From an uncultured Syntrophobacterales bacterium (GTDB lineage Bacteria > Desulfobacterota > Binatia > UBA9968 > JAJDTQ01): 64,000 nt of DNA. Below, piece by piece: positions 9,507-49,328 of the stretch. The notes below the pieces were generated by a model that saw only the letters and a program-made list of their open reading frames with translations, did not search any database and was not told where the DNA came from. The DNA lies in contig CAZFIU010000003.1 of NCBI GenBank assembly GCA_964519455.1, positions 18,943-82,942 on the forward strand. Direction: 5' to 3'. The first letter of the stretch is position 1. The number at the start of each line of letters is the position of its first letter. Both the position numbers and the translations under genes were made by a program.

Positions 9507-9607
9507 GCGGCAGGGCTCAATCCCTTGATCCGGCGGCGGGAGGTCAGGTAGGTTGACTTGAGCCCGCCCACCCGGGCCGGCCGGCCGAAAAGGAAGGAGA
9601 CAGGCAC

Positions 9608-12130: not shown

Positions 12131-13288
12131 ATGGCACGAGAGTACCGTTGCATTTCCGCCGACAGCCATTTCGAGGCGCCTCCGGACCTGTGGCGCCATC
12201 GTGTTCCCGCGAAGTACCGGGACCGCGCGGTGCGGCGGATCCGCCTGTCGAACGGCCGCGACGCGCTGCAGAAAGAGGGCCGGCCGCTGACCTACGGCGG
12301 CACCAGCTACTACGGTGGGCGCCCGCCGGAGGAATTCGATCCAACCGTCATCGATTTCGACAACACGCCGGGCTGCGGCGGCCCCGAGCAACGGCTGCGC
12401 GAGCAGGACCAGGACGGCGTCGACGCCGAGGTGCTGTTCGCCCTGGACGTGCGCAACCCCGCCGTCCGCGACCAGGAAGCCTTCGTCGGCATCATCCACC
12501 ACTTCAACGAGTTCATGGCGGAGGAGTACTGCGCCGTGGACCCGGAGCGCCTCATCGGCGTCGGCGTCCTGCCCAACCGCGGCGTCGAGGACGACATCGC
12601 CGAGATGGAGCACTGCAAGCGCCTGGGCTGCAAGGCGGTATGGCTCGCCACCTATCCCAGCGGGCGCGGCTTCCCGTCACCGGAGGACGACCGCTTCTGG
12701 GCCGCGGCCCTGGACCTGGACATGCCGGTGGTGGTGCACACCTCCTTCACCACCAAGGTGGGTACCCGCGAAACGCCGCTCTTCGACTACCCCCTGTCAC
12801 CGCCGGCCGAGCGCCGGCCGCCCACGGACTTCATCCAGCGTCTCGCCCGCCAGGCCCCGTACCACTCGGGCTCCGTGGAGGCGAGCCAGATGGTCGTGGC
12901 CGGGATCTTCGACCGCTTCCCCAAGCTGCGCATCTACTGGGCCGAGAACAACGCCGGCTGGCTGCCGTACTTCTACGAGCAGATGGACCACGAGTACTCC
13001 GTCAACCGGTTCTGGGCCGAGCGCCAGATGGGGCTGCCGCGGCTCAAGCGCCTTCCCAGCGAGTATCTCCGGGAGCACGCCTACTGGGGCTTCTTCGAGG
13101 ACCACGTGGGCGTGCGCCTGCGCCACGACGTAGGCGTCGACCGCATGCTGTGGGGCAGCGACTTCCCCCACGTGGTGACCCGCTGGCCCCACTCCCGGGA
13201 ACTGCTCGATTCGCAGATGCAGGGCGTCCCGGCCGACGAGCGCCACTTCATGGTGGCCCGCAACGCCATCGAGTTCTTCCGTTTGTAG
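12131..13288 (+). CDS. amidohydrolase-2 family protein (second paralogue)
   Basis: CISADSHFEAP N-terminal motif and ...WGSDFPH C-terminal metal motif. It starts 3 nt after the upstream paralogue. Confidence 0.8.
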   Translation: MAREYRCISADSHFEAPPDLWRHRVPAKYRDRAVRRIRLSNGRDALQKEGRPLTYGGTSYYGGRPPEEFDPTVIDFDNTPGCGGPEQRLREQDQDGVDAEVLFALDVRNPAVRDQEAFVGIIHHFNEFMAEEYCAVDPERLIGVGVLPNRGVEDDIAEMEHCKRLGCKAVWLATYPSGRGFPSPEDDRFWAAALDLDMPVVVHTSFTTKVGTRETPLFDYPLSPPAERRPPTDFIQRLARQAPYHSGSVEASQMVVAGIFDRFPKLRIYWAENNAGWLPYFYEQMDHEYSVNRFWAERQMGLPRLKRLPSEYLREHAYWGFFEDHVGVRLRHDVGVDRMLWGSDFPHVVTRWPHSRELLDSQMQGVPADERHFMVARNAIEFFRL

Positions 13289-13290
13289 CC

Positions 13291-13397
13291 GTCGGGGCCT
13301 CCCTCGGACCTGACTTCTCCACGACACGCGGCCCGCCCGCGACCTGCCAGTTCAGGTGAGGTCGGGGCCTCCCTCGGACCTGGTTTCTCCACGACAC
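13291..13397. repeat. two direct 37-bp repeats (GTCGGGGCCTCCCTCGGACCTG[AC/GT]TTCTCCACGACAC) with a 70-bp period
   Basis: Copies at 13291-13327 and 13361-13397, 35/37 identical. Confidence 0.6.
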
Positions 13398-13460
13398 TCC
13401 GCCCGGATTCCCGCTTCCCAGGGTGTGGCAAACCCTGCTGGACACGTAGAGCCGCCACGC

Positions 13461-13646
13461 CCCCGAATCGTCATTCCCGCGAAACAGACTGTGTCAAAAC
13501 TCACACGATCCGGAAACAGCGCCGCCCCCCGTGACGTCATTCCCGCGAAAGCGGGAATCCATGGGTAGGGCGGGGCTGAAACAGGCTCGTTCCCCACCTC
13601 ACCCCGCCTGGATTCCCGCTTTCGCGGGAATGACGATTCGGGGGGC
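13461..13646. repeat. composite palindromic element of the TCATTCCCGC-GAAA-GCGGGAATGA family
   Basis: The outer arms CCCCGAATCGTCATTCCCGCGAAA (13461-13484) and TTCGCGGGAATGACGATTCGGGGGG (13621-13646) are reverse complements. An inner ~100-bp bipartite palindrome spans 13536-13634. Confidence 0.7.
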
Positions 13647-13708
13647 CGGGAATGAAGTAATGGGGACCGGGAATGACGTGTTGGGAGCCGGAAATGACGT
13701 ATTCGTAA
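13646..13708. repeat. three tandem ~21-bp copies of the half-unit CCGGGAATGA[A/C]GT...
   Basis: ccgggaatgaagtaatgggga / ccgggaatgacgtgttgggag / ccggaaatgacgtattcgtaa, read directly. Confidence 0.5.
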
Positions 13709-13838
13709 CGTCTCCGCCCGGAGGGTTTGGACACGACCGCTTTCGCGGGAACGACGGGTCGGGGTGTCGGCGGTGCTTCCCTTCCGCGGTCAACCGGAGT
13801 AGATTCCACTGCGAATTCCGAACCAGCGGGAGGGAACC

Positions 13839-14861
13839 ATGCTACCCGACATGCCACGTGACCAGCGGCTCGAGTTGCTGCGCAAGATGCTCATGATCCG
13901 GCGCGCGGAAGAGCACGTCGTCCGCTTCAACGAGGAGCACGAAGGGCTCATTCGGGGCCACTTCCACATCTACATCGGCCAGGAGGCCACCGGCGTGGGC
14001 GTGTGCGCGGCACTGGCGCCCGAGGACTACGTCTTCAGCACCCACCGGAACCACGGCCACGTCATCGCCAAGGGCGGCGACCCCGGCAAGGTGCTCGCCG
14101 AGGTCATCGGACGCGAGACCGGCTACTGCCTGGGACGCGGCGGCACCTTCCATGTGGCGGCGCCCGACCTGAACATCCTGCACACCTCCGCCATCGTGGG
14201 CGGCAGCACGGCGCTGGCCTCGGGGGCGGCGCTGGCGGCGCAGGTGCTGGAGTCCAACGCCGTCACGGTGGTCTTCTTCGGCGACGGCGCCATGGACGAG
14301 GGCGTGGCCTACGAAAGCATGAACATCGCGCGGCTGTGGAACCTGCCGCTGATCTTCGTCATGGAGAACAACTACCGGCGCGCCGGAAGGGTCAATACCG
14401 ACCACGCCGCCGACGACCTGCCCAACATTCCGCGCGCGCTCAACCTCGAGACGGTTACCGTGAACGGCGACGACGTGGGGCAGGTGCATGGCACGCTGAA
14501 GGAACTGGTGCGCCGGGTCCGCGCCGGCGAGGGTCCGTTTTTCGTCGAGGCGCGCACCCACCCGTGGCCGGGCAACGACGGCGCCCATCCCACGCTGGTG
14601 GGCGGACCGACGGACATCCACTGGGCCTGGGACCCGAGCCCGGTGCCCGAAGACGTGCGTTCCTGGTACGCCGAGGGCGATTGCATCCTGGCCTATGCGC
14701 GGGAGCTGGCGGAGAGCGAGGGGTGCGACCGGGAGGCCGTGGTGCGGGTCGACGAGGAGGTGCGGCGCGACGCCGACGCCGCGGCGCAGTTCGCGCTCAC
14801 GAGCCCGTTGCCTCCGCCGGAGGCGGCGGTCCGGTATGCGTACGCGGGAAGGAGTGAATAG
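13839..14861 (+). CDS. thiamine-pyrophosphate-dependent dehydrogenase E1 component, alpha subunit (PdhA/AcoA-like)
   Basis: TPP-binding GDG...N region (VVFFGDGAMDEGVAYESMN) in an E1-alpha-like ~340 aa protein. Confidence 0.85.
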   Translation: MLPDMPRDQRLELLRKMLMIRRAEEHVVRFNEEHEGLIRGHFHIYIGQEATGVGVCAALAPEDYVFSTHRNHGHVIAKGGDPGKVLAEVIGRETGYCLGRGGTFHVAAPDLNILHTSAIVGGSTALASGAALAAQVLESNAVTVVFFGDGAMDEGVAYESMNIARLWNLPLIFVMENNYRRAGRVNTDHAADDLPNIPRALNLETVTVNGDDVGQVHGTLKELVRRVRAGEGPFFVEARTHPWPGNDGAHPTLVGGPTDIHWAWDPSPVPEDVRSWYAEGDCILAYARELAESEGCDREAVVRVDEEVRRDADAAAQFALTSPLPPPEAAVRYAYAGRSE

Positions 14862-14863
14862 GC

Positions 14864-15841
14864 ATGGCGCGCGAGATGACCCTGGGAGAGGCGCTGGTCG
14901 AGGCGTTGGCCGAAGCCATGGAGCAGGATCGCCGGGTGGTGTTGATCGGCGGCGGTCTGGTCAGCTCGGGACCGGGCGCGGAGCGGTTCCGCTCGGTGCG
15001 CGAGCGGCACGGCAACCGCATCAAGTCCCCGCCCATCGCCGAGCTGGGCTATTGCGGCATCGCCGCGGGCGCGGCCATGGCCGGACTGCGTCCCCTGGTG
15101 GACATCGGCACCGCGACTTTTTCCTACGAGGCGATCCCGCAGATCAACAACGAGGCCGCCATCGCCTACTCCAACTCCGGCGGCCAGACCAACGCGCCGG
15201 TCACCTACTTCATGCGCTACGGCATCCGCGGCGGCGGCGGCGTGCAGCACTCCGGCAGCCCGCAGCCCTGGTACTGGAACACCCCGGGCCTGCAGGTGGC
15301 CATGCCCGCCACACCGGCGGACGCCAAGGGGCTGCTGCGGACCGCATTGCTGAAGAGCCAGGACCCCACCATCTTCTTGGCCCATGAGCGCCTGCTGGGC
15401 GAGCGCGGCCCGGTGCCCGACGGCGAGCACGAGACCGAGTTCGGCAAGGCCACGGTGGCGCGGGAAGGCAGCGACGTCACCATCGTGGCTTCCGGGGTGC
15501 AGGTGCCCCGGGCGATGGCGGCCGCGGAGGCTCTGGCCAAGGACGGCATCTCGGCGGAGGTGGTGGACCCGCGGACGCTGGAGCCGCTGGACACCGACAC
15601 TCTGCTGGCATCGGTGCGCAAGACCGGCCGCCTGGTGGTCACCGACGAAAGCCACGACAACTGCGGGGTCGCCGCCAATATCGCCGCGCTGATGGCGGAC
15701 CTGGCTTTCGACAGCCTGAAAGCGCCCATCAAGCGGGTCGCCATCCCGCACGTGCCGATCCCGTTCGCGGTGCCGCTGGAGGACTACGTGACGCCGACCG
15801 CGGGGCGTATCGCGGAGGCAGCGCGGGCCGTGATGGGATAG
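14864..15841 (+). CDS. alpha-ketoacid dehydrogenase E1 component, beta subunit (transketolase-like)
   Basis: 325 aa with a transketolase-like pyrimidine-binding N-terminal half and a C-terminal domain. It starts 3 nt after the alpha subunit. Confidence 0.85.
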   Translation: MAREMTLGEALVEALAEAMEQDRRVVLIGGGLVSSGPGAERFRSVRERHGNRIKSPPIAELGYCGIAAGAAMAGLRPLVDIGTATFSYEAIPQINNEAAIAYSNSGGQTNAPVTYFMRYGIRGGGGVQHSGSPQPWYWNTPGLQVAMPATPADAKGLLRTALLKSQDPTIFLAHERLLGERGPVPDGEHETEFGKATVAREGSDVTIVASGVQVPRAMAAAEALAKDGISAEVVDPRTLEPLDTDTLLASVRKTGRLVVTDESHDNCGVAANIAALMADLAFDSLKAPIKRVAIPHVPIPFAVPLEDYVTPTAGRIAEAARAVMG

Positions 15842-23052: not shown

Positions 23053-23112
23053 TTCACGGCGCGGGTCGCGCGCACGCCCGGCGCCGTGCCCAATCTCTGC
23101 TCGGGAGGAACC

Positions 23113-24009
23113 ATGGAAGAGAAGATCCGGTTTTTCAGCGGCCCCGGCTACGGCCTGTCCGCCGTCATCACCATCCCCGACGGCCGCGACCGGTCGGACC
23201 GCCACCCCGGCGTCATCCTGTGCCAGGGATACGCCGGCCTCAAGGAGGCGCTGATGCCCTTGGTGGCGGAACGTCTCGCCGCCGAGGGGTACGTAACGCT
23301 CCGCTTCGACTATCGCGGCTTCGGCGAGAGCGAAGGGCCGCGCCATCGCCTGATCCCGCTGGAACAGATCGAGGACATCCGCAACGGCCTCACCTGCCTC
23401 GCCGTCCGCGAGGAGGTGGACCCCGACCGCCTGGCCATCTGGGGCACCAGCTTCGGCGGCGCCCACGCGGCCTACGCCGCCGCCGTCGATGAGCGGGTCC
23501 GCTGCATCGTCAGCGTCGTGGGGGTCGGCGACGGCGAACGCTGGCTCCGTTGCCTGCGCCGCGAATGGGAGTGGCAGGCGTTCCTGAAAGAGCTCGACGA
23601 CGACCGCGACCGGCGCGTGCTGAGCGGCCAGTCCCGGCGCGTCCACCCTTACCACATCATGGAGACGACTCCGGAAGGGTGGGAGTTCTGGAAGGAGACC
23701 GTGGCCGCCAACCCGGAGCGGGGCGAGGTGGAAATGCCCCTGGAATGCGCCGACGCCATCATCGAGTACAAGCCCGAGGCCGCCGCCCACGAAATCGGCT
23801 GCCCGGCCCTCTACGTCTCCGCCGAACTCGACACCCTCACCCCGCTGGAAGAACAGTTGAACCTCTACGAAGGCTCACCCGAACCCAAGGACTACATCGT
23901 GGTACCGGACGTCAACCATCACGACATCTACAAGGAGCCGCACCTGAGCCACCTGCTGGACCTGTCCGTGGCATGGTTCGACGAGTACCTGAAGGAGGCG
24001 GGAGACTAG
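23113..24009 (+). CDS. alpha/beta hydrolase
   Basis: Nucleophile elbow GTSFGG plus Asp/His downstream. GGAGG Shine-Dalgarno upstream. Confidence 0.8.
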   Translation: MEEKIRFFSGPGYGLSAVITIPDGRDRSDRHPGVILCQGYAGLKEALMPLVAERLAAEGYVTLRFDYRGFGESEGPRHRLIPLEQIEDIRNGLTCLAVREEVDPDRLAIWGTSFGGAHAAYAAAVDERVRCIVSVVGVGDGERWLRCLRREWEWQAFLKELDDDRDRRVLSGQSRRVHPYHIMETTPEGWEFWKETVAANPERGEVEMPLECADAIIEYKPEAAAHEIGCPALYVSAELDTLTPLEEQLNLYEGSPEPKDYIVVPDVNHHDIYKEPHLSHLLDLSVAWFDEYLKEAGD

Positions 24010-24088
24010 AGAGAGGAGGCAGGAGACCAGAGAGGCGAAGAGAACGGGCCTTTCCCAAAAAACAGTTGCCACCCGCTTAAGAAGGTCC

Positions 24089-24116
24089 TTGAAGTGACCG
24101 ACCTTTATTGTACAAT
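24089..24116 (+). promoter_or_regulatory. sigma70-like promoter (TTGAAG-N16-TACAAT) upstream of the small membrane protein
   Basis: Read directly in a locally AT-richer stretch. Confidence 0.3.
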
Positions 24117-24155
24117 CGATATCGTACTCGCTTCTTCATCGGGGAGGTTGCAACC

Positions 24156-24371
24156 ATGAGTGCCGTTCCGTCGGATCTCTATATCCTTGTCGCCATCATC
24201 GGCACGGGCATCTCCTTGGCGGGACTCATTCTGCCGGACCTGCGCTCAATGAAAAGGGACATCGGCGAACTCCGGGACAGTATCGGCGAGCTCCGGGAGC
24301 GCATGGCTCGTATCGAGGGGCTCTTCGAAGGCTTTGCCCGCCGGGAAAACAACCGCGACAACGTGCCCTGA
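24156..24371 (+). CDS. hypothetical small membrane protein with a tandem IGELR coiled-coil segment
   Basis: 71 aa with one TM helix. GGAGG Shine-Dalgarno upstream. No family recognised. Confidence 0.4.
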   Translation: MSAVPSDLYILVAIIGTGISLAGLILPDLRSMKRDIGELRDSIGELRERMARIEGLFEGFARRENNRDNVP

Positions 24372-24480
24372 TGCTTGACCCTATCCGTCTTCACGACATA
24401 GTCCTTTTGCGCTTCGGCGATTCTTGTACCACCGAGCTACACTCGACCCCTGAGAGCAGGGGCTTCAAGCGTGCTTGCGG

Positions 24481-24696
24481 TTAGTCCTGTGTGGCGGGCT
24501 CGCTGGCCAGGACTTCGTGGGTGACTTGAGCGATCTCATTCATGCCTCGCCGCAGCAAGCCGATTTCGTATCGTGTCAGCATCCGGGGAGCGGGCGAGGT
24601 ACCTAGCCTCCGATTGAGTAAGGCAATCGAAGGAGTGGCCGAAATTCTTCCGCCACCACCCTTCGAAGTCCGGTCCGTGTCGTTGTCGGAGTTCAT
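24481..24696 (-). CDS. hypothetical protein (weak)
   Basis: ORF only, Gly/low-complexity N-terminus and no recognisable family. Confidence 0.2.
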   Translation of the reverse strand: MNSDNDTDRTSKGGGGRISATPSIALLNRRLGTSPAPRMLTRYEIGLLRRGMNEIAQVTHEVLASEPATQD

Positions 24697-24709
24697 GCAG
24701 TTGCTCCTG

Positions 24710-25033
24710 TTAGGGGTTCAGTTTAGCGAAGGGAGTGTCCAGTCGTTCGCTGAGCCGCTTCGCCAAGGCAGCCGGAATGGCATTGACGCCTCGGCGTTCA
24801 TAGGCATGGGCGCTGACCAGCACGGGACTTCCGCCTTCGCTCACCGCGGAGATCAGTGCCTGAACCGCAGCGATTCCAGCTTCGTCCACCAGACTGCCAA
24901 CCAGCTTCGCGGCGGCGAAGGCGTCACCTGCCTTTGCGTCGAGGTACTCGGGATGCCGTCTGGTCCGCGTTTCGTCGGCGAGCAAGATTACGTCAGGAAA
25001 CGCTTCCCATACTACCCTTGGAGGATGCTTCAT
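24710..25033 (-). CDS. hypothetical 107-aa protein, translationally coupled to the upstream AAA-ATPase/PD-(D/E)xK gene
   Basis: Its ATG at 25033 abuts the AAA gene stop (TAA 25034-25036). No family recognised. Confidence 0.5.
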   Translation of the reverse strand: MKHPPRVVWEAFPDVILLADETRTRRHPEYLDAKAGDAFAAAKLVGSLVDEAGIAAVQALISAVSEGGSPVLVSAHAYERRGVNAIPAALAKRLSERLDTPFAKLNP

Positions 25034-26581
25034 TTACACCCCCTCCACCTCGAACCCCGCCAGGTTGCGTGCCTCCCCGCTGAATTCCACCGCCACCAAG
25101 TGGATCGGCTCGCCGAGGCTCCGGTACTTGTCCGCGTAGCCCCTCTCCTTCAACTGCGTCATGGCAGAACCCGGCGGCGCCGTCTCGACCACCTTGAACT
25201 CGAACAGGTAGACGTTGCCGTTGAACCGCACGGCCATGTCCAGTCGCCCGTGGTTGCTGCTGTCCTCCACCGTGATATCCAGCCCCAGGCCTGCGAAGTA
25301 GGAGTAGAACACACTGGCGTAGTAGCCCTCGTAGTCGGCGATGTCGTTGTTCGTGTACCACTGGTGCGGGATGCTGGCGAAGAACGCGTGGAACAGCGTC
25401 CGAAGCCCGTCGAAGTCGTTGGCAAGGAGCAGGTTGTAGAGCTTGGCGCTGTTCGACACCCGCCTCGACGCGTCCCCCGTCATGCGGTTCAGCAGGCTTC
25501 TGTTCAGGCTTTGGCGGACCTCCCGGTTGGGATAGCCCAGACGGTAGAGCATCTCCCCGCCGCGAGGCTCGGCGCGCACGATGGTCAGGTAGCCGGTCTG
25601 GAACAGCAGCGCCTCCGTCGGTATGTCGTCCACGTCGAACCGCGACAGCAACTCGCCGCTGCCGACCATGCCGTCCAGCGACAAGGCGCTGACCCGGCGC
25701 TCGAACAGCGTGTCCACGAGAAACGCCGGTGAGCCCGTCTCGAACCAATGGCCGCCGAACTCCCGGTTGCGGAACAGCAGCAGGATGTCGACCGGATTGT
25801 AGACATTCTCCTCGCCCAACCAGCCGTAGCCGTTGTACCAGTCGCGGATCTCGCCTCGGTCGAGGCCCGGCAACTCCGCGGCAAACACCGTGTCCAGGTC
25901 CGCGTCCGTATAGCCGCACACCGCGGAATAGCCGGGGTCCAGCGTGATGTCGGTAAGGTTGTTGAGCCCGGAGAACAAGCTCACCTTGGAGAACTTGCTC
26001 ACTCCGGTGATGAAGCTGAACCGTAGATGCGCGTCGCTGTCCTTTATCACCGCGTACAGACCGCGCAGAAAATCACGGTTGGCGCGCGCGACTTCCGGCA
26101 CATCCAGCGCATCCAGGATGGGCTTGTCGTACTCGTCAATCAGCACCGCCACGGGCTGCCCCGCCTGGTGGTGCAGCGCCTCCAGGAGATAGCGCAAGCG
26201 TTCGACCGGTGTAGAGTATGGCGAGTCCAGCCCCGCCTTGCGTTCCACCGTGTCAAGTTGGGCCATCAGGTTCGTGTGCAGGTAGCCGGGCTCCTTGAAG
26301 TTGCCGCCGCCGAAACTCAGGCGTACGACGGGATGCCGCACCGACCAATCCCACCGATCGTGGATGTAGAGCCCTTTGAACAGCGGCTCATTGCCCTCGA
26401 ACAACTCCTTGCACGTGTCCAGGAACAGGCTCTTGCCGAAGCGTCGGGGACGGGACAGGAAGTAGTGCGTTCCCTCGTCCAGTAGCCGGCGGACATACGC
26501 GGTCTTGTCCACGTAGTAACAGCCGTCTTCGCGAATCTTGCGGAAGGTCTGAATGCCGATGGGCAGCCTGCGCCTGGTCAT
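25034..26581 (-). CDS. predicted AAA-ATPase (PF09820-like) with C-terminal PD-(D/E)xK nuclease domain (DUF1703-like)
   Basis: N-terminus LPIGIQTFRKIREDGCYYVDKTAYV...FLSRPRRFGKSL. The C-terminus carries a ...D...FEFK PD-(D/E)xK-like core (GRLDMAVRFNGNVYLFEFKV). Confidence 0.8.
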   Translation of the reverse strand: MTRRRLPIGIQTFRKIREDGCYYVDKTAYVRRLLDEGTHYFLSRPRRFGKSLFLDTCKELFEGNEPLFKGLYIHDRWDWSVRHPVVRLSFGGGNFKEPGYLHTNLMAQLDTVERKAGLDSPYSTPVERLRYLLEALHHQAGQPVAVLIDEYDKPILDALDVPEVARANRDFLRGLYAVIKDSDAHLRFSFITGVSKFSKVSLFSGLNNLTDITLDPGYSAVCGYTDADLDTVFAAELPGLDRGEIRDWYNGYGWLGEENVYNPVDILLLFRNREFGGHWFETGSPAFLVDTLFERRVSALSLDGMVGSGELLSRFDVDDIPTEALLFQTGYLTIVRAEPRGGEMLYRLGYPNREVRQSLNRSLLNRMTGDASRRVSNSAKLYNLLLANDFDGLRTLFHAFFASIPHQWYTNNDIADYEGYYASVFYSYFAGLGLDITVEDSSNHGRLDMAVRFNGNVYLFEFKVVETAPPGSAMTQLKERGYADKYRSLGEPIHLVAVEFSGEARNLAGFEVEGV

Positions 26582-28899
26582 GAAACCATCTTAAACCCCG
26601 GCCGGAAGATGTTAAAGGCTACCCGCTCCGGCCTGAGCGGCAGGTCCTTCACCCGCACGCCTCCCAGCGCGTTGGCGACGGCGTTGCCGATGGCGGGTTC
26701 CACCGGGCCCAAGGCGGCTTCGCCCATGCCCTTGGCGCCAAAGGGGCCGTCGGGGTGCGGGTGTTCGACCAGGAGGGAGGTGAAGGTCTCGGGGTGGTCC
26801 TGCATGGATGGGGGGAGGTAGCTCAGGAAGGTGCAGTTGATGGGTTGGCCGTTGTCGAAGACCATCTCCTCGAACAGCGACGAGCCCAGGGACATGAGCA
26901 TGGAGCCTTCGTTCTGCAGGTGGCACTGGCGCGGGTTGATGGCCTTGCCCGCGTCCACCGCGGTGGCGAGGCGCACCACGCGCACCTTGCCGGTCTCGGT
27001 GTCCACCTCCACCTCGGCGGCGCAGGCGGACAGGAAGAAGAAGGCCGACGCCTTGCCCTTGCCGGTGGCGGGGTCGACGCCGCCGCGGCTCTGGAAGCCG
27101 GCGTTGCCGAAGAGACTGCCCACGGCGCCGCCGAAACGGGCGCGGAAAAGGTCGCCGAAGGCGAGGCGCCGCTCGGGGACGCCGGCCACCTGCACGTGGC
27201 CGTCGCGCAACTCCAGGTCCGCCGCGTCGGCCTCCAGTTCGCCGGCGCCGATCTCCAGGAGCTGGTCGGCCACCTGGCGGGCCGCGGCGACCGCGGCGTT
27301 GCCCATGCTGAAGACCGTGCGGCTGGAGCTGGTGGACTGGTCGAAAGGGGTCACGTCGGTGTCGGGCAGGGTGACGGAGACCCGCTCCCGCGGGATTCCC
27401 AGCACCTCGCTCACCATCTGCGCCAGGCTGGTCTGAACCCCCTGGCCGATGTCCACGCTGCCGGACAGCAGCGTGGCGGAGCCGTCTGCGTTGAGCCGCA
27501 GGCCCGCCGAGGAATGGGACGGCGTCATGGTGGTCTTGATCATGACCGCGAGGCCCTTGCCGCGCACCAGCGGCCCCGCCGGTCGGGGCGCCTGCTCCGC
27601 CCCGCCCTGCCACTCCACCGCCTCGGCCGCGGCCCGCAGGCAGTCCTCCAGCCCCACCGCCTCCAGGGTATCGCCGGTGACGAACACGTCGCCGTCGTGC
27701 ACCAGGTTCCGGAGGCGCATCTCCAGCGGGTCCAGCTCCAGGCGCCGCGCCATGTCGTCCATCTGCGCCTCGTAGGCCCAGCACACCTGGGGCACGCCGA
27801 AGCCCCGGTAGGGGCCGGTGGGCGGGGTGTTGGTGTAGACGCAGTAGGAGGTCAGGCGCTGGTGCGGTATCCGGTAGGGTCCGCCGGACACCTCGCCGCC
27901 GTTGCGCGAGGTGGAGGGACCGGTCAAGGCGTAGGCGCCGGTATCGTAGACCGCTTCCACCTGACGCGCCAGGATGGTGCCGTCGCGCTTGACGCCGGTC
28001 TTGATGCGCACCACCGCCGCGTGGCAGTGGCCGGTGAGGAAGACTTCCTCGCGCGTGAGCTTCCACTGGACCGGCCGGCGCGCCTTCCGCGCCAGCGCCG
28101 CGGCCAAGGGCTCCAACCGCAGGTGCACCTTGCCGCCGTAGCCGCCGCCGACGTAGGGCACCACCACCCGCACCATGGACTGCGGCAGCTCGAACAGCTC
28201 CGCGAGCTGGACCCGGATAGACGAAGGGTTCTGCGTGGCCGAATACACCGTGAGCTTCCCTTCCGCGTCCCAGAAGGCCGTGACCACGTGGGGTTCGAGG
28301 TGGCCGTGCTGGATCTTGGGGGTGGTGTAGGTGTCTTCGAAGACCAGGTCCGAGGCGGCAAAACCCGCGTCGACGTCGCCGCGCCCGACGCTGTAGGAGG
28401 TGAGCACGTTGGCGCGGTCCTCGTAGTGGTAGTGGCCCTTGTCGAGACGGCTCTCGGACTGCACCCGAGACGCGTGCAGCACGGGCCCGCCGGGAGACAT
28501 GGCCTCGATGGGGTCCAGCACCGGCTCCAGGGGCTCGTACTCCACGCGGATGAGATCGAGGGCTTCCTCGGCAATGTCCGGCTCTTCGGCGGCCACCGCG
28601 GCCACCACCTCACCGGCGTAGCGCACCCGGTCCACCGCCACGATGGGCTGGTCCTTGACCACGGGGCCGAAGTGGCAACGTTCCGGCGGAAGGTCCGCGC
28701 CGGTGAGCACGGCCACCACACCGGGCAGCGCCGCCGCGGCGCTCGCGTCTACCGAGACGAGCCGTGCGTGAGGGTGGACGCTCCTCAGCGCCTTGACATG
28801 GACCAGCCCCGGGAACTCCAGGTCGCCCGTGTACTGGGCCGCGCCCGTGACTTTCGCCGGCCCGTCCACCCGTGATGCGTTTTCGCCGATGTGATTCAT
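26578..28899 (-). CDS. xanthine dehydrogenase family molybdopterin-binding subunit (aldehyde oxidoreductase large subunit-like)
   Basis: 773 aa with Ald_Xan_dh hammerhead and MoCo-binding domains. No adjacent FeS or FAD subunit genes. Confidence 0.85.
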   Translation of the reverse strand: MNHIGENASRVDGPAKVTGAAQYTGDLEFPGLVHVKALRSVHPHARLVSVDASAAAALPGVVAVLTGADLPPERCHFGPVVKDQPIVAVDRVRYAGEVVAAVAAEEPDIAEEALDLIRVEYEPLEPVLDPIEAMSPGGPVLHASRVQSESRLDKGHYHYEDRANVLTSYSVGRGDVDAGFAASDLVFEDTYTTPKIQHGHLEPHVVTAFWDAEGKLTVYSATQNPSSIRVQLAELFELPQSMVRVVVPYVGGGYGGKVHLRLEPLAAALARKARRPVQWKLTREEVFLTGHCHAAVVRIKTGVKRDGTILARQVEAVYDTGAYALTGPSTSRNGGEVSGGPYRIPHQRLTSYCVYTNTPPTGPYRGFGVPQVCWAYEAQMDDMARRLELDPLEMRLRNLVHDGDVFVTGDTLEAVGLEDCLRAAAEAVEWQGGAEQAPRPAGPLVRGKGLAVMIKTTMTPSHSSAGLRLNADGSATLLSGSVDIGQGVQTSLAQMVSEVLGIPRERVSVTLPDTDVTPFDQSTSSSRTVFSMGNAAVAAARQVADQLLEIGAGELEADAADLELRDGHVQVAGVPERRLAFGDLFRARFGGAVGSLFGNAGFQSRGGVDPATGKGKASAFFFLSACAAEVEVDTETGKVRVVRLATAVDAGKAINPRQCHLQNEGSMLMSLGSSLFEEMVFDNGQPINCTFLSYLPPSMQDHPETFTSLLVEHPHPDGPFGAKGMGEAALGPVEPAIGNAVANALGGVRVKDLPLRPERVAFNIFRPGFKMVS

Positions 28900-35161: not shown

Positions 35162-36247
35162 ATGACGCTGATCCTCACCAACGAGGAGATCGAGAGCTGC
35201 TTCACCCTGGAGGAATGCTTCAGGGTGATGGAGCCCGCGTTCATCGACCTGGGCAACGGCGCCGCCGCCAACCTGCCCCGCCAGGACCTGCTGGTGCCCG
35301 GTCCCCTGGAGGGCAGCTACCACGGCCTCAAGTCCGCCGGCGGCTCCATGCCGCGCTTCGGCGTGACCGCCGCCCGGCTGACCTCGGACATCGTCACCTG
35401 GCCTGAAGTGGACGGCGAGAGACGGCGTGTCAAGGTGCCGCTGGCCATGGGCAACAAGTACGTCGGCCTGGTGTTTCTCTTCAGCACCGCCACCGGCGAG
35501 TTGCTGGCCATCTTCCCCGACGGCCTGGTGCAGGCCATCCGCGTGGGCGTCACCAACGCCCTTTCCGCCAAGTACATGGCGCGACCGGAATCGTCGGTGC
35601 TGGGGCTCTACGGCTCCGGCTGGCAGGCACGCTCCGGCCTCCTGGCCATGTGCTCGGCCATGCCCATCCGGGAGGTTCAGGTGTACAGCCCGACCGAGGA
35701 GCACCGACGGGCCTTCGCCCGAGAAATGGATCGCCGGGTGGAGGCCGAGGTACGGGCGGTGGACGTTCCCGAGCACGCGGCCCGCGGCGCCGACATCGCG
35801 CTTCTGACCACCAACGCGCTGGTGCCCTTCTTTCCGGCCGACTGGATTCGCCAAGGCATGCACATCGCCACCGTCCGCTCCAGCGAGATGACCGTGGACG
35901 CGCTGCTGCGGTGCGACCGGCTGGTGGTGTCGAGCCGGGAAGCTGCCCGGCTGGTGACGCTGCCCGGCGAGGAGGAGCGAATCCCGGAGGCCGGCGAGGG
36001 CGACTACAGGCGAGAGGAACTGAGCGGCACCGAGGCCGACTGGAGCCGGAAGCCGGAGTTGGGAGAGGTCATGGCGGGAAGAGCCGCGGGCAGGGAAAGC
36101 GCGGCGGAGGCGACCTGCATGCTCAACTATGTCGGACTCGGGCTCCAGTTCGCCGCCGCTGGAGCCCGAATCTACGAGTTGGCCCGGGAACGCGGCCTCG
36201 GCAGGGAGCTTCCCACCGAATGGTTCTCGCAGGACGTTCACTCGTAG
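35162..36247 (+). CDS. ornithine cyclodeaminase/mu-crystallin family protein
   Basis: Rossmann motif GLYGSGWQA and OCD-family length and pattern. Confidence 0.8.
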   Translation: MTLILTNEEIESCFTLEECFRVMEPAFIDLGNGAAANLPRQDLLVPGPLEGSYHGLKSAGGSMPRFGVTAARLTSDIVTWPEVDGERRRVKVPLAMGNKYVGLVFLFSTATGELLAIFPDGLVQAIRVGVTNALSAKYMARPESSVLGLYGSGWQARSGLLAMCSAMPIREVQVYSPTEEHRRAFAREMDRRVEAEVRAVDVPEHAARGADIALLTTNALVPFFPADWIRQGMHIATVRSSEMTVDALLRCDRLVVSSREAARLVTLPGEEERIPEAGEGDYRREELSGTEADWSRKPELGEVMAGRAAGRESAAEATCMLNYVGLGLQFAAAGARIYELARERGLGRELPTEWFSQDVHS

Positions 36248-36323
36248 GTGGCGCCGTGGGAGGGTTCGCGTTGAGATTTTGGACTATGTGTCACCAAGCC
36301 GACACTTCATCCTCCTTTTCCTT

Positions 36324-37214
36324 GTGCTAAAGATCATTACATGTTACCCGTTCGCCTCAGTGATTGCCAACCCAGAATTCAAACGGCAACCAAAGTACTT
36401 TTCGGCTTACGTGCGAACGCTCAGTCAGTACCTCGGTTACACTGTTCGGAGCAAAGGGATCGTAAAAGTGCCGACGCTTTCCGAAATAGGGGCAGGACTC
36501 GGCAACTTGGGGCTCGATCCGGGAAGAATTGTGGACGCGTTTGGTAAACCAACCCAGCTTGGTGCAGACTTGAATAGGTACTTTGAATATCGCTCGAGCA
36601 TTCTCAACAATTCAGTACAACATCAATTGATGACAGTCGAAGAGGCACGGCACACCTTCGAGGAGTTGCGCGAGGCCATGGTCTACGGTTGCCCCCTTCC
36701 GCTAAACAAGCAAAAAGGTGACAAGGCAGGCCCAGCGTACTTTACGGGAATCATCAATATGCTGATCGCTAACGGCTTGAGGGGGACTCAGTGCGACTAT
36801 TCACCCATGAAACTCACAACAATCACGAGAAACGCTACAGTAATCCGAACACTATCTAGACGGGTCGATGGCGCTTTCCCTGCCGTCGTGAATCCGTTGG
36901 CGTTGTGGGAAATCAAAGAGTACTACTACACTACCACGTTCGGAAGCAGAATCGCCGACGGAGTATACGAAACCCTTTTGGATGGCATGGAACTGCAAGA
37001 ACTCCGGGAACATGAGAATATTGACGTCAAACATTATCTGATGGTCGATGCGTACAACACGTGGTGGGAAATGGGTAGACCGTACCTCTGCCGTATGGTG
37101 GACATGCTCCACATGGGCTATGTCGATGAAGTCCTCTTTGGCAGGGATGTGATTGAGCGAATTCCCGAACTTACCAAGGAATGGCTGTCTCTGCTGGAGA
37201 ACAAGCCAGTCTAA
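36324..37214 (+). CDS. putative type II restriction endonuclease, DpnII/MboI-like (start uncertain: GTG 36324, TTG 36279 or GTG 36288)
   Basis: Low-GC (~50%) gene convergent with and overlapping a Dam-family methyltransferase. The segment PLALWEIKEYYYTTTFGSRIADGVYETLL resembles the DpnII ExK...SGSK catalytic core. No ATG is present, so an alternative start codon is required. Confidence 0.45.
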   Translation: MLKIITCYPFASVIANPEFKRQPKYFSAYVRTLSQYLGYTVRSKGIVKVPTLSEIGAGLGNLGLDPGRIVDAFGKPTQLGADLNRYFEYRSSILNNSVQHQLMTVEEARHTFEELREAMVYGCPLPLNKQKGDKAGPAYFTGIINMLIANGLRGTQCDYSPMKLTTITRNATVIRTLSRRVDGAFPAVVNPLALWEIKEYYYTTTFGSRIADGVYETLLDGMELQELREHENIDVKHYLMVDAYNTWWEMGRPYLCRMVDMLHMGYVDEVLFGRDVIERIPELTKEWLSLLENKPV

Positions 37215-38101
37215 TCGGGGCTGTAAGTCAACAACAGACGGTCGGCTACCTTTTCTTCCTCCAACGTTTCACCGTTCATCTGAAAGCGCCGCAACATGGA
37301 ACGTCCGCAGTCAATAAAAACCTCTCGATCAAATAGGCCTTTCGGGATTGAAAGGTCCACTTTGTGCTTCCCGGACTTCTTTGTCCCATCAATGCTCAGG
37401 GCGACGTAAACACCCCTGTTTTTGCAGTCCTCAATAGCGTTAAAGAGATCGGGCAAGTGGAAGGACTGTGCCCCGTAGAGTATCGCTTGGGAGTTACTAT
37501 AGGGCGGATCGCAATAGATGAGATCGTTAGGCCTAGCTTGTGCCATGGCCTCTTGATAATCCATCAGCAAGAATTGCGTGCCCGATGTTCTTGAGACCCA
37601 CTCATCCACGCGCCTTGAGAAGCTACTCGGGTGAATTGGATCGTGGGCACCGCAGGGCGTGGACATATACCCGTCGCGTTGCCTGAAACGCACTACGCCG
37701 CCATAGCACGACCGGCAGAGAAACACGAGGTCTGCTCCATTCGGATTGACGTTATATGCTGCCTTGATCTTCTCATACTGCCGTATCTTGTCCCCGCCTT
37801 TCAAAAACAGCCATCTCTCGGCGTACCAGAGTTTTAGCAGCTCGGGGTCGTTTGAGAGTGTCTGCCAGATTTCAACGAGAGGTTTGAAGGAATCAGAAGC
37901 GACCCCGCAACTCGGTGCAAGCGTTGCGAGGACGGCTGCACTTCCTACAAACGGTTCCCGGTACGTGCCCATCTGGGAGGGAAAGAATGAGGCTATCTGA
38001 TGGGCGAATCGCTGCTTGTTGCCAACCCACTTGAGCAACCCTGCCCTGAAGGGGCGGACCATCGCAGTATCCGAAAAAGGAAACCGTTGTTGGTAAACCA
38101 T
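37211..38101 (-). CDS. Dam-family N6-adenine DNA methyltransferase (D12 class)
   Basis: Motif I-like KWVGNK, EPFVGSAAV, and catalytic IYCDPPY (DPPY). Alternative start at 38062. Confidence 0.8.
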   Translation of the reverse strand: MVYQQRFPFSDTAMVRPFRAGLLKWVGNKQRFAHQIASFFPSQMGTYREPFVGSAAVLATLAPSCGVASDSFKPLVEIWQTLSNDPELLKLWYAERWLFLKGGDKIRQYEKIKAAYNVNPNGADLVFLCRSCYGGVVRFRQRDGYMSTPCGAHDPIHPSSFSRRVDEWVSRTSGTQFLLMDYQEAMAQARPNDLIYCDPPYSNSQAILYGAQSFHLPDLFNAIEDCKNRGVYVALSIDGTKKSGKHKVDLSIPKGLFDREVFIDCGRSMLRRFQMNGETLEEEKVADRLLLTYSPD

Positions 38102-43828: not shown

Positions 43829-47122
<3,294 letters not shown>

Positions 47123-47136
47123 GCCGGGAGACGAGT

Positions 47137-47598
47137 TCAAGATAGCGGGTCAAGGTCGAACAACCGGACATCTCCCGCTCTGGTAATGCGTGCGACCAAG
47201 GGCGGTTGCGTCCCTTCCACGACGCGCTGGATCTTCGGGAGCGCCTCGATGACCGCATAGGCCATCTCATCACCGGACATGTTGCCGGAAGGCAGAATGA
47301 AAGCTCTCGCGCGGCTTCGCTGCAGAGCATGACGCTCTACGGGTCGCCGACGTATCCGATCGTCTTTGGTCAGGATTAACCAGCCCCGCCGTCCTACTTC
47401 GGGGAGCCACTCACTGTCGGGTGAATTCGTTGGGAAATGGTCCTTGAGCAGTTCTACCGTAAGCCCCTGGCGACGAAGTGCAGACGCGACGACCTTGTCT
47501 CCCAGGCTCTGGTCGAGGAAGAAGGTTGGGCTCTCATGCGGCGTGTCTGTACTGCTCGCAACGGATCGCTTCTTCGATTTCCGATGGCGTTCGGCCAT
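47137..47598 (-). CDS. DUF5615 (PIN-like/Mut7-C) putative toxin
   Basis: FFLDQSLGDKVVASALRRQG...WLILTKDDRI matches the DUF5615 core. Its start overlaps the upstream DUF433 gene by ~65 nt, and no alternative in-frame start exists. Confidence 0.6.
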   Translation of the reverse strand: MAERHRKSKKRSVASSTDTPHESPTFFLDQSLGDKVVASALRRQGLTVELLKDHFPTNSPDSEWLPEVGRRGWLILTKDDRIRRRPVERHALQRSRARAFILPSGNMSGDEMAYAVIEALPKIQRVVEGTQPPLVARITRAGDVRLFDLDPLS

Positions 47599-48265
47599 AG
47601 TCGTCCGCGAGCTCTTCGACGGATTCGCCAGCCCCAAAGCGCTGGGAAATGACCTCCGTGGGTATGTGTGTCCCTGCCAACACCGGGCGCCCGAAGGCAA
47701 CACGAGGATCAACAACGATCACCTGCGGTCCAGCTTCGGCAGTATCGGCGACGTCAAGTTGAGGGTGCCGGCGGGTGAACAGGTAAAGCCTCACGGCCAG
47801 TCCTGAGGGGTCTCGCTCGATTCTGCGCAAGTGGATCTCCAGAACCTTGCGCATGCCGAGCTGGCCTTCCTTCGAAATGTTGACCAATTGCTCGAAGCTC
47901 TGGACGAAGAGATCCAGTCCATCCGTTTCGAAGCTGCGATCAGCCAACGGATGGGATGAAGGGTGTTTCCGCTTCAAGTAATCCAACGCCTGCCTGACAG
48001 TTGTCAACGAAACGTGATGCTGCCGGCGGATGGCGGCCAGGACATGGACTTCAACCAAGTTGACGAATGACAGCAAGCAACGGGCGGCGTCGGCGAGATC
48101 GACCAGGGGCTCAGAAAATTGCTGTCCACGGGATGTCGGATACCCACGCCCTCGGACCCAGGACCGCAGTGTCGCGACTGGTACCTGCAGATAGTGCGCG
48201 GCCTCCGAAATACCATAGGCCGGCAACTCAACGGGACTCTTTCCGCCGTAGAGATCGATCGTCAT
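47534..48265 (-). CDS. DUF433 domain protein with N-terminal HTH (putative antitoxin partner of DUF5615)
   Basis: C-terminal segment VIVVDPRVAFGRPVLAGTHIPTEVISQRFGAGESVEELADDYGRTPSEIEEAI matches DUF433. AAGGAG Shine-Dalgarno upstream of ATG 48265. Confidence 0.7.
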   Translation of the reverse strand: MTIDLYGGKSPVELPAYGISEAAHYLQVPVATLRSWVRGRGYPTSRGQQFSEPLVDLADAARCLLSFVNLVEVHVLAAIRRQHHVSLTTVRQALDYLKRKHPSSHPLADRSFETDGLDLFVQSFEQLVNISKEGQLGMRKVLEIHLRRIERDPSGLAVRLYLFTRRHPQLDVADTAEAGPQVIVVDPRVAFGRPVLAGTHIPTEVISQRFGAGESVEELADDYGRTPSEIEEAIRCEQYRHAA

Positions 48266-48534
48266 CTTCTCCTTCGGGGCTTCTCCGGGTTTCCAACTCC
48301 CAATCCGCACTTGGTCGCCGGGGCGATTGTAACACGAAAGGAGTACCAGATAACAACAAACGGACCCCCAGACGCACGGTGCATGTCATTTGGGGTTGAC
48401 TCTGACCCGTGTTCTGGAAAAATGGTGAGATAGATGGACAACTAGTCCACCGCGGCATCAGTAGAAGATTGCTTCGGGACTATGAAGCTCGGCTGCTGAG
48501 GCGAGCCGAGCCCGATCAAGAACAAGGAGACGCC

Positions 48535-49011
48535 ATGCACGCACTGAGACTCGCACTGGTCGGGTTGTTGGCCATATCCCTGTCCGGCTGTCTGAGCGGG
48601 GCGGGCGAGAAGGAAAGCGCGGGGACGCTGCTGGGCGCCGTGGCCGGCGGCATCGCCGGGGCACAACTCGGCAAGGGAGATGGACAGCTCCTCGCCACCG
48701 GAATCGGCACGCTCCTCGGCGCCGCCATCGGCAACGAGATCGGCAGATCCCTCGACCGGGCAGACCAACTCGCCTTGGAGCGGGCAACACAGAGTTCGCT
48801 GGAGACGGCGCCCGTCGGGCGGACCACCACCTGGAAGAATCCCGATTCCGGCAACCAGGGCACCATCACGCCGCGCAAGACGTTCAAGCGCAACGACGGT
48901 ACCTATTGCCGCGAGTTCACCCAGACCATCACCATCGGCGGCAAGACCGAAGAAGCCTACGGCACCGCATGCCGTCAGCCCGACGGCACCTGGAAGCTGG
49001 TCTCAGCGTAA
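48535..49011 (+). CDS. lipoprotein with Gly-zipper (17-kDa surface-antigen-like) region
   Basis: Signal peptide plus lipobox (LSGC), Gly-zipper segment GAVAGGIAGAQLG...GTLLGAAIGN. AAGGAG Shine-Dalgarno upstream. Confidence 0.65.
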   Translation: MHALRLALVGLLAISLSGCLSGAGEKESAGTLLGAVAGGIAGAQLGKGDGQLLATGIGTLLGAAIGNEIGRSLDRADQLALERATQSSLETAPVGRTTTWKNPDSGNQGTITPRKTFKRNDGTYCREFTQTITIGGKTEEAYGTACRQPDGTWKLVSA

Positions 49012-49328
49012 CGGCCCTTCTCTGAGCCGGGGTTCCACCTCAGCGGCGAAAATAGCTGAACCGTCACGTTCCAGTGCGCTAATCCGCCACCGTTCCACGG
49101 CTTGTTGCAGCCCATGTTGCTGGAAACGCTTTCCGTGCGGATTTCAGCGTGTTACCGGGGTAGGGTCAGTGCAGGCCAGCACACTTGACCGCAATTGTAA
49201 TAGTTCGCTGATGAGAACCATTATGCTGTTGCCTGCATCGACGTCCCCGCGCTCCACCTGCACCATTGACCGTAACAACAGTCGCCTTGAGCTTGTCGCC
49301 CACAGGATCCGCGTTACAGGAAAGTTCG

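Follow-up and report, generated by a model that had tools for sequence, protein, structure and literature searches.

An intact DUF1703 ATPase-nuclease gene in a probable decayed accessory islet between two convergent core genes

Proteins of the DUF1703 family join an N-terminal predicted ATPase domain to a C-terminal PD-(D/E)xK nuclease-like module. The motifs of the family were defined in a computational description (Knizewski et al. 2007; PMC1913061), and in Cardinium DUF1703 is an expanded family whose proteins are predicted to be secreted (Siozios et al. 2019; PMC6387759). A second described protein that bears on the present locus is the plasmid protein KfrC, whose phosphoribosyltransferase domain and acidic DDT motif underlie its toxicity upon over-production (PMC8124265). 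Here we analyze a DUF1703 gene and its surroundings in a 64-kb stretch of DNA from an uncultured Syntrophobacterales bacterium (hereafter the window; coordinates are positions in it, and L-numbers denote loci of relatives). On the minus strand of this stretch three frames stand in a row: a xanthine-dehydrogenase-family molybdopterin subunit (XDH) of 773 amino acids (aa), a DUF1703 protein of 515 aa, and an open reading frame (ORF) of 107 aa. An annotation made from the sequence alone (the original prediction) had read the touching ends of these frames as translational coupling and the block as an inserted accessory cassette.

We consider it likely that the block is a decayed accessory islet that retains one intact DUF1703 ATPase-nuclease gene next to a broken KfrC-like gene, that its gene overlaps were made by deletion, and that the role of the DUF1703 protein is probably in genome conflict. 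The block itself is real, but its most striking features, the overlaps and the 107-aa ORF, are artifacts of decay.

Insertion, cargo, and decay at the XDH/hydrolase site

Relatives that reveal the allelic states of the site were found via the XDH protein cluster. The loci L088–L090 (including GCA_001753035.1) share 92–94% nucleotide identity with the window in both flanks and are empty at the site: XDH and an α/β-hydrolase gene are convergent and parted only by a 17-bp perfect hairpin (terminator), and the gene order (isochorismatase, BNR, XDH, hairpin, α/β-hydrolase, AbrB, CoA-transferase, ABM, Amdase, cupin) is that of the window minus the block. A blastn comparison of the window with L088 loses homology at 26621 and regains it at 24009, so that the insert comprises positions 24010–26620 (2611 extra bases). 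Other relatives carry different cargo in the same gap. L087 has a RelE/HTH toxin–antitoxin-type pair and a 166-aa gene; L086 and L092 have an intact KfrC-like gene; L004/L005 have DUF1703, a KfrC remnant, cas3 (HD and Fic domains), a 771-aa gene in the position of cas8u that has no Pfam match, Cas_GSU0053, a 558-aa GSU0054-like protein, and a second DUF1703 gene; and L113, which of the relatives comes closest to the window at the XDH site (96.5% identity across XDH–DUF1703), has DUF1703, GSU0053, GSU0054, Cas10, Csm2, and RAMP genes. In the relatives that have the larger island (L086/L092, L004/L005, and L113), XDH is followed first by DUF1703 in every case, and the remaining cargo varies. L004 comes from contig ctg495429 of ERZ26167216 and L113 from JAJEAI010000183.1. 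No tRNA gene or Rfam family marks the insertion site. The empty and differently filled alleles bear out the idea of an inserted cassette and show that 24010–26620 is a horizontally acquired accessory islet at an insertion or recombination hotspot between two convergent core genes. The features of the islet and its flanks are as follows, with the evidence for each in parentheses.

24010..26620, strand not applicable: whole insertion relative to the empty site (blastn against L088, empty-site sequence, gene orders)
25034..26581, minus strand: intact DUF1703-family gene, 515 aa (PF09820 and PF08011)
26588..26615, minus strand: predicted sigma-70-like promoter of the DUF1703 gene, TTAACA-16-TAAGAT, now within the last XDH codons (promoter scan)
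26578..26620, minus strand: derived C-terminal tail of XDH (…RPERV-AFNIFRPGFKMVS and stop), including the ATGA overlap (orthologue comparison)
24536..25033, minus strand: KfrC-like pseudogene of phosphoribosyltransferase fold (241-aa cluster-mates, in-frame translation, tblastn/blastn)
24710..25033, minus strand: 107-aa ORF, the first part of the pseudogene (ORF list and KfrC-like comparison)
24481..24696, minus strand: spurious ORF of 71 aa in another frame of the pseudogene's 3′ part (overlap with the C-terminal coding sequence of the KfrC-like frame)
24156..24371, plus strand: real small gene for a 71-aa transmembrane (TM) protein (367 homologues, alignment)
24089..24116, plus strand: promoter-like site TTGAAG-16-TACAAT in an AT-rich stretch, serving the TM gene (promoter scan)
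26578..28899, minus strand: flanking core gene, XDH-family molybdopterin-binding (MoCo) subunit, 773 aa (Pfam/NCBIfam; synteny with L004, L087, L088, L113)
23086..24009, plus strand: flanking core gene, α/β-hydrolase, 307 aa, convergent with XDH (Pfam; synteny)

The 107-aa ORF had been described as a protein of no recognizable family that is coupled to DUF1703, and neither part of this description survives comparison with relatives. The ORF matches positions 12–94 of the 242 positions of phrog_22413 (PHROGs, E 1.4e-13) and shares over 90% identity with the N-terminal region of KfrC-like proteins of 241 aa; its 90%-identity cluster includes proteins of 240–241 aa (P0133–P0135 have 241 aa). The KfrC-like identity surfaced only through PHROGs and cluster membership, and the 107-aa, 71-aa, and 87-aa ORFs gave no NCBIfam, PADLOC, or Pfam match. 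The intact protein is ~40% identical to KfrC, annotated as a phosphoribosyltransferase (PRTase), over 98% of its length, and an intact relative scores 5e-5 on PF00156. Reading on in frame beyond the TAA of the 107-aa ORF yields QEQLHELRQRHG…AAARHE and a stop, which is the C-terminus of the 241-aa proteins. By tblastn and blastn, the window keeps residues 1–103 and 179–241 of the KfrC-like protein and has lost residues 104–178 through a 76-codon (228-bp) in-frame deletion at about 24725–24727, the removed part containing VMVDDFVGQGGT; in addition, codon 108 is TAA (24710–24712) where intact copies read TCA. Intact copies of the gene are present in near-identical strains. Given this deletion and nonsense codon in a 241-aa gene, the 107-aa ORF is, as judged from these alignments, a truncated pseudogene of a KfrC-like PRTase-fold gene that has lost its catalytic core. 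The minus-strand 71-aa ORF was considered as a conserved neighbor, based on 45% identity to an 87-aa ORF of L004, and rejected: both are out-of-frame readings of KfrC-like remnants, and the former has no "homologue" other than the corresponding frame of the L004/L005 KfrC remnant. A small partner that recurs beside PF09820 homologues is likewise not borne out, given that the ±8 kb around DUF1703 contain no KfrC-like homologue at any of 80 other genomic loci (L006–L085).

The junctions on either side of the DUF1703 gene are present as originally described: its ATG overlaps the TGA of XDH (ATGA), and the ATG of the 107-aa ORF starts immediately after its TAA. Their reading as coupling fails on comparison with orthologous loci. 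Eleven XDH orthologues all end in …RPERVVEV(L/V)RGG…, and L004 keeps this native end and its stop, followed by 130 bp before the DUF1703 ATG. The window sequence passes from …CGGAGCGGGT directly into AGCCTTTAACATCTTCCGGCCGGGGTTTAAGATGGTTTCATGA, so that XDH gains the tail AFNIFRPGFKMVS from the DUF1703 5′ region; aligned in this way, a ~123-bp deletion is what fused the XDH frame to the DUF1703 5′/promoter region and created the ATGA overlap. L113 has a related XDH/DUF1703 junction 12 nt away, with a 1-nt TAATG overlap, which places the fusion before the split of the window and L113 strains and leaves it a derived state. Similarly, the DUF1703 stop and the KfrC-like ATG are separated by 67 bp in L086 and by 115 bp in L092, and the abutment in the window is due to the loss of this spacer. 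Neither overlap nor abutment is conserved among orthologous loci, L113 alone sharing the deletion-derived XDH/DUF1703 junction. These alignments show both junctions to be, at the level of sequence, incidental scars of lineage-specific spacer deletions with no operon design. The case is a caution that gene overlaps can arise by decay and that a pseudogene can mimic a small orphan protein.

A promoter scan returned three sites where 0.4 are expected. One of them, TTAACA-16-TAAGAT, which L004 and L113 share, ends 6 nt upstream of the DUF1703 ATG, a distance at which the transcript is predicted to be leaderless. Among DUF1703 homologues a TANNNT element lies 4–9 nt upstream of the start in 17 of 49, as compared with 3 of 49 in a shifted control. 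The AT-rich promoter-like stretch and the small TM/coiled-coil gene of the original prediction also exist, but they are not upstream of the block's genes, given that they are on the plus strand and lie downstream of the minus-strand genes; the TM gene is convergent with DUF1703. It has a GGGGAGG Shine–Dalgarno sequence 8 nt before its ATG and encodes an N-terminal single TM helix followed by heptad repeats. Its family comprises 367 homologues of 60–92 aa, the alignment of which has 18 invariant columns, a 7-residue (one heptad) indel, and a conserved C-terminal DLRERMARxEGLFEGF. The gene adjoins the α/β-hydrolase gene in L093 and XDH in L091, and paralogues occur in core contexts (L094–L101). 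The 71-aa membrane protein thus appears to be the product of an independent neighboring gene with its own predicted promoter. In several related genomes, one paralogue of the family lies between dprA and a GIDA-family (trmFO/gidA-like) gene.

Remnants in the relatives bear on how the islet arose. L092 and L093, strains nearly identical to the window's genome, have the order α/β-hydrolase, TM gene, XDH 3′ remnant, 146-bp DUF1703 3′ remnant, palindromic element, intact KfrC-like gene, and DUF1703. In L004, a 46-nt XDH fragment, 44/46 identical to the L088 allele, begins 4 nt after the stop of the first DUF1703 gene. Decayed copies of the XDH 3′ end thus follow a DUF1703 stop in two haplotypes (L004:11553-11597; L092:304-356 and its equivalent in L093), the DUF1703-stop/XDH junction is identical in both, and the XDH gene upstream of the insert keeps its native full-length 3′ end, as seen directly in L004. 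From the decayed copies together with the native end we infer that either the target was duplicated over at least ~135 nt or the element brought a replacement 3′ end with it. The pattern suggests that the islet was founded once, by an insertion ~138 nt upstream of the XDH stop that left the XDH 3′ end re-supplied on the left side, and that, to judge from the alleles sampled, cargo was variously gained and deleted thereafter; the window would be the most reduced filled allele. Elsewhere, a 68-nt promoter-like segment occurs on both sides of the solitary DUF1703 cassette of L022 (7792–7860 and 9564–9632), with an alignment score of 35 as compared with a maximum of 16 in ~500 mismatched upstream/downstream controls. 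A 130-nt flanking repeat in L035 was considered as a target duplication and discarded as a tandem-array remnant. Long irregular target duplications are found in only a few loci, DUF1703 upstream regions are unrelated between loci, and we found neither terminal inverted repeats nor short target duplications around DUF1703 in the window or L004. A long near-perfect palindrome, GAGTCATTCCCGCGGAAGCTTGCCCCCG…CGGGGGCAAGCTTCCGCGGGAATGACTC, lies between the KfrC-like gene and the DUF1703 remnant at L092:~590-660. The window lacks it, and in L004 XDH is followed by a similar but shorter hairpin.

The DUF1703 protein and its family

The 515-aa protein has the two domains originally assigned to it. PF09820 matches residues 7–203 with 211.7 bits (gathering cut-off 26.1) and is covered in full (profile positions 1–201), and PF08011/PDDEXK_9 matches residues 417–507 with 76.2 bits (gathering cut-off 25.5). 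All family motifs are intact: Walker A (44-RPRRFGKS-51), Walker B (149-DEYD-152), and the nuclease residues E418, D448, E461-x-K463, and Q476. The motifs are invariant in close relatives, and all except Q476 are at least 90% conserved in an alignment of 84 sequences spanning 36–85% identity. The gene has a dN/dS of 0.215 relative to its L004 copy, and its synonymous divergence (dS 0.39) is near that of the adjacent XDH (0.43). These values and motifs demonstrate, within the reach of a sequence comparison, that in the window only the DUF1703 gene remains intact and under purifying selection.

An AlphaFold2 model built from a shallow alignment (77–86% identity) reached a predicted local distance difference test (pLDDT) of 60.6, and its Foldseek matches were disregarded; the model built from a diverse alignment reached a pLDDT of 93.1 and a predicted template modeling score (pTM) of 0.90. 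Its secondary structure suggests four parts: an ATPase core and lid (~1–300), a helix–helix–hairpin module (~305–349), a helical linker, and the nuclease (~418–515). The best Foldseek matches of the model are Orc1/Cdc6. Its structural neighbors (scores in parentheses) are the PF01637-type archaeal ATPases 2qen (13.9) and 2fna (13.5), plant NLR NB-ARC modules (~12), CED-4 (10.6), bacterial Avs5/Avs3 (10.3–10.4), BrxC (10.2), ORC/Cdc6 (9.7), TnsC (9.0), and the CidB/CinB nucleases (9.7–9.8), a match that we attribute to the C-terminal domain from its 145–178 aligned residues. In this confidently predicted model, the ATPase appears nearest to switch ATPases of the PF01637/STAND/ORC type and is fused to a PD-(D/E)xK nuclease. 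This architecture suggests that the protein works like a nucleotide-switched, probably oligomerizing module that binds DNA and keeps a nuclease under control.

DUF1703 proteins form a very large family. In a profile search, 24,011 clusters (50% identity) scored E ≤ 1e-3 and 4,330 of these E ≤ 1e-30; most of the best-scoring 150 clusters are ~500–540 aa long and stand-alone. The 120 closest cluster representatives are 77–100% identical and nearly all 514–516 aa. In data with one genome per species, copies with 57–81% identity occur in Vicinamibacterales, Latescibacterota, Gemmatimonadota, several gammaproteobacterial lineages, Spirochaetia, Entotheonella, Rhodothermales, and others, and several genomes have 2–5 copies, often in tandem. 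Many of the carriers are metagenome-assembled genomes whose names look like, and which we take to be, sponge or coral bins. Recurrent neighbors are few: the commonest neighbor cluster is found at only 7 of 80 loci, and 115 adjacent ORFs match 158 Pfam families, none of which occurs in more than four ORFs.

A proposed role in genome conflict and the competing explanations

The specific recurring neighbor of DUF1703 is type I-G CRISPR-Cas (a Cas4–Cas1 fusion with GSU0053/GSU0054), which lies beside or around the gene in nine loci: L004, L005, L008, L009, L012, L028, L045, L048, and L057, with L004 and L005 being one haplotype sampled twice. In a neighbor-joining tree all nine copies fall within the window's subclade of ~30 leaves and none among the other ~68 copies. 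L113, at the XDH site, is a tenth CRISPR-Cas-adjacent relative and the sole case that is not plain type I-G, given that it combines GSU0053/GSU0054 with Cas10/Csm. The arrangements differ. A DUF1703 gene follows the last interference gene in L004/L005 and lies between cas3 and cas2–cas4/cas1 in L028, 15 bp from the latter. In L057 (2823–6302), two paralogues, a close homologue on the plus strand and a divergent 613-aa protein on the minus strand, lie between a csb2-like gene and cas4–cas1 of the type I-G locus. The order is cas4/1, cas2, array, DUF1703 in L008, L009, and L045, with the gene 145–270 bp past the array, and in L048, with the gene ~2.5 kb past it; in L012 the cas4–cas1 gene is 6.4 kb away. 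In L009, the DUF1703 stop is followed after 9 nt by a partial CRISPR repeat (…CCGGCCTCATTGAAGC; 9549–9575) and the array lies on the other side of the gene, so that DUF1703 appears to be inside the array end. The repeats of all arrays form a single family, in which stem changes are compensatory. By a rough binomial estimate, P is ~1e-6 at a background of 0.9% that was assumed rather than measured, and for this reason we treat the association as a lead and not a result.

Two proteins of these loci deserve mention in their own right. The type I-G Cas3 of L005 (2275–5781; L004:12061-15567) is 1168 aa long and has, in addition to helicase and HD domains, a C-terminal Fic/DOC domain (residues 1023–1116, E 1e-8). 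L113 encodes on its plus strand (12578–14941) a 787-aa Cas_GSU0054 (Csb2-like) protein with a complete KfrC-like PRTase module in frame (residues ~227–470), which keeps its own MKRPPR start and shares 75% identity with the 241-aa gene that stands alone; the fusion protein is encoded between GSU0053 and the Cas10/Csm2/RAMP genes. This module may be a CRISPR-linked enzymatic domain, and its in-frame insertion would make the KfrC-like PRTase a second, previously unnoticed CRISPR-linked component and hints at an enzymatic module that is as yet unexplored.

Based on these observations, we posit that a larger island once occupied the XDH/hydrolase hotspot and that the window has a decayed version of it. 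The KfrC-like gene has lost its PRTase core and gained a nonsense codon, and spacer deletions have made the ATGA overlap and the TAA–ATG abutment. The DUF1703 gene would be transcribed from its own promoter as a leaderless mRNA. In its product, a STAND/ORC-like P-loop module with a winged helix is predicted to bind nucleotide and probably DNA; the ATPase module may then oligomerize or change state and so license the C-terminal PD-(D/E)xK domain to cut nucleic acid, the protein acting as a stand-alone ATP-switched nuclease. The most likely role of such a protein would be in genome conflict, either defense against mobile elements or competition among them, a context suggested by the CRISPR-Cas-adjacent loci of the subclade and by other low-GC defense islets in the window.

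Several observations weigh against this interpretation. PADLOC-DB v2 has no match at E ≤ 0.1 for the 515-, 107-, 71-, or 87-aa products, sequence and profile searches of the PDB returned no relative of the DUF1703 protein, and Foldseek gave no PDB match of the model at E ≤ 1e-3. We found no biochemical or genetic study of any DUF1703 protein in the literature searched, and expression from the gene's own promoter as a leaderless mRNA is a prediction only. DUF1703 genes mostly neighbor ordinary metabolic genes and are rare on plasmids (64 of 72,556 records, mostly non-mobilizable) and on viral contigs (11 loci), which makes the linkage of the family to defense or mobile elements circumstantial; the original remark that this enigmatic family is linked to selfish elements or defense is fair, but this locus alone does not settle it. 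The block is AT-richer than its surroundings, as had been noted (GC 0.61 vs a window mean of 0.658, sd 0.036), but composition does not single it out: GC is lower in 14 of 123 same-size windows and the tetranucleotide distance is equal or larger in 17 of 123. At third codon positions GC is clearly atypical in the pseudogene (0.62, vs 0.82–0.95 in its neighbors) and is 0.878 in the DUF1703 gene. Block composition is therefore only mildly atypical and alone not decisive for a foreign origin. Finally, the XDH of L088, where the site is empty, is closer to that of the window (dS 0.28) than is the XDH of the filled L004 (0.43), which may fit different orders of gain and loss or transfer by recombination in the flanks.

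Among more specific explanations, the one that survives best is that the window's DUF1703 subclade has a functional link to CRISPR-Cas islands, whether as an accessory switch-nuclease or as a gene that anchors or mobilizes them. We advance this only tentatively, as possible rather than probable, based on DUF1703 invariably coming first in the variable, CRISPR-Cas-bearing island at the XDH site and on three unrelated lineages placing it after, within, or at the end of the I-G interference module, with others placing it just past the array. If it is true, the window is a decayed end-state in which the cas genes are gone, the PRTase gene is broken, and the nuclease is retained.

An unlikely explanation is that DUF1703 is a selfish, self-mobilizing single-gene cassette whose ATPase-nuclease promotes its own insertion or recombination and nucleates or brackets islands. 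Copies that are 57–86% identical occur across at least seven phylum-level groups, often several per genome or in tandem arrays, as such a cassette would predict, but the rarity of the family on plasmids and viruses does not favor it, and the DUF1703 dS matches that of the flanking core gene, as vertical residence predicts. Similarity between copies ends at the ORF ends, yet these ends have neither terminal inverted repeats nor conserved sequence. Two direct copies bracket the cas genes of L004, a 146-bp remnant of a second copy persists in L092/L093, and long target duplications flank some cassettes (the XDH 3′ fragment in two haplotypes, the 68 nt in L022); clear duplications are nevertheless found in only 2–3 of ~60 solitary loci. 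TnsC and MuB are among the structural neighbors of the model, the closest of which are STAND/PF01637 ATPases and not transposition ATPases.

Less likely again is that DUF1703 of the window subclade is an accessory component of CRISPR-Cas (type I-G, hybrid I-G/III) and that the window copy was orphaned by deletion of the cas genes. At the same XDH site, cas genes directly follow DUF1703 in L004/L005 and L113; in L028, L057, and L004/L005 a DUF1703 gene follows the interference module, ends it, or is inside it, with the cas4–cas1 adaptation module on its other side in L028 and L057; and it follows the array in L008, L009, L045, and L048, the partial repeat after the stop being seen in L009. The single repeat family of the arrays, the confinement of all these copies to the window subclade, and the rough P~1e-6 at an assumed background also speak for it. 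However, it has no fixed place or orientation relative to the cas genes, no cas genes lie nearby in ~70% of the subclade or in any of the remaining family, and in the window we found no cas gene, array, or match to the repeat family. Co-location in variable or defense regions would yield the same pattern. A functional three-gene operon, with XDH, DUF1703, and the 107-aa protein translationally coupled and the latter a dedicated small partner, is very improbable and already largely refuted: the two junctions are really present, L113 also has a 1-nt XDH/DUF1703 overlap, and another short contig (L003) has the identical 107-aa ORF, but this ORF is the 5′ part of a 241-aa gene that bears a deletion and a nonsense codon, intact versions in near-identical strains lie behind 67–115-bp spacers, the XDH tail is derived (the L004 gap being 130 bp), empty-site genomes retain XDH without DUF1703, and no such partner occurs at the 80 other loci.

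Preferring the decayed islet with a stand-alone DUF1703 nuclease, we see in the switch-ATPase/nuclease model, the CRISPR-Cas association of the subclade across phyla, and the filled, empty, and decayed alleles at one site three handles on the function of a very large family.

Other genes of the window lie outside this block. The lowest-GC stretch (0.52–0.55), at 36129–38101, encodes a DUF7690/DUF7687 protein and a convergent D12-class N6-adenine DNA methyltransferase and is probably a restriction-modification-type islet. A second low-GC islet, at 47534–50849, encodes a 527-aa protein with the nuclease domain of Shedu (SduA_C; 49266–50849), near which are a DUF433/HTH protein and a glycine-zipper protein similar to outer-membrane antigens. 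Just upstream of the Shedu islet is a 1097-aa UvrD/REP-type helicase (43829–47122, plus strand) with an N-terminal region of ~530 residues that has no Pfam match. In another region of lower GC, a 673-aa ORF (60908–62929, plus strand) unusually fuses a cytochrome P450 domain to an N-terminal domain of the GPP34 (Golgi phosphoprotein 3-like) type.

Relation to described systems

Prophage e14, inserted in icd of E. coli, re-supplies the 3′ end of its target gene, and the displaced 3′ end stays behind as a remnant. The present site is similar in that a decayed XDH 3′ copy lies past the DUF1703 stop in L004 and L092/L093 and the upstream XDH is full-length; it is dissimilar in that there is no integrase at the XDH site and the remnant has been lost from the window itself.

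KfrC of IncP-1/IncU plasmids, a protein of PRTase type I fold linked to plasmid stability and effects on host growth, is similar over its full length to the intact relatives P0133–P0135, which carry the PRPP-loop-like VMVDDFVGQGGT. In contrast, the window copy has a premature stop and is without residues 104–178, including the acidic loop (DDT/DDF) that binds phosphoribosyl pyrophosphate (PRPP); the toxicity-linked part of KfrC (PMC8124265) is exactly the part deleted. The window pseudogene also has no adjoining kfrA or kfrB, its neighbors being DUF1703 and the small TM gene on a chromosome-like contig.

Unlike the STAND immune proteins (Avs/AVAST, Mrr–NACHT fusions) and PF01637 proteins, the DUF1703 protein has no C-terminal repeat or sensor domain. 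Its nuclease is C-terminal and not N-terminal as in STAND proteins with nuclease effectors, its Walker A and sensor residues are atypical, and it has no PADLOC match.

The closest system remains the DUF1703 family as originally defined (PMC1913061). The window protein matches it in domain order, in length (~515 aa), and in the exact residue numbers of the unusual Walker A and the DEYD of Walker B; it also has the segments GVSK and VYNP and, in the nuclease, motifs E, D, ExK, and Q. The family's multi-copy, horizontally spread behavior is also seen here, and the window protein itself differs in nothing. Compared with the predicted secreted proteins of Cardinium, it shows no obvious N-terminal signal-like hydrophobic segment, as judged by eye. 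What is new relative to earlier accounts of DUF1703 is the history of a locus and the recurrent CRISPR-Cas neighborhood of a subclade.

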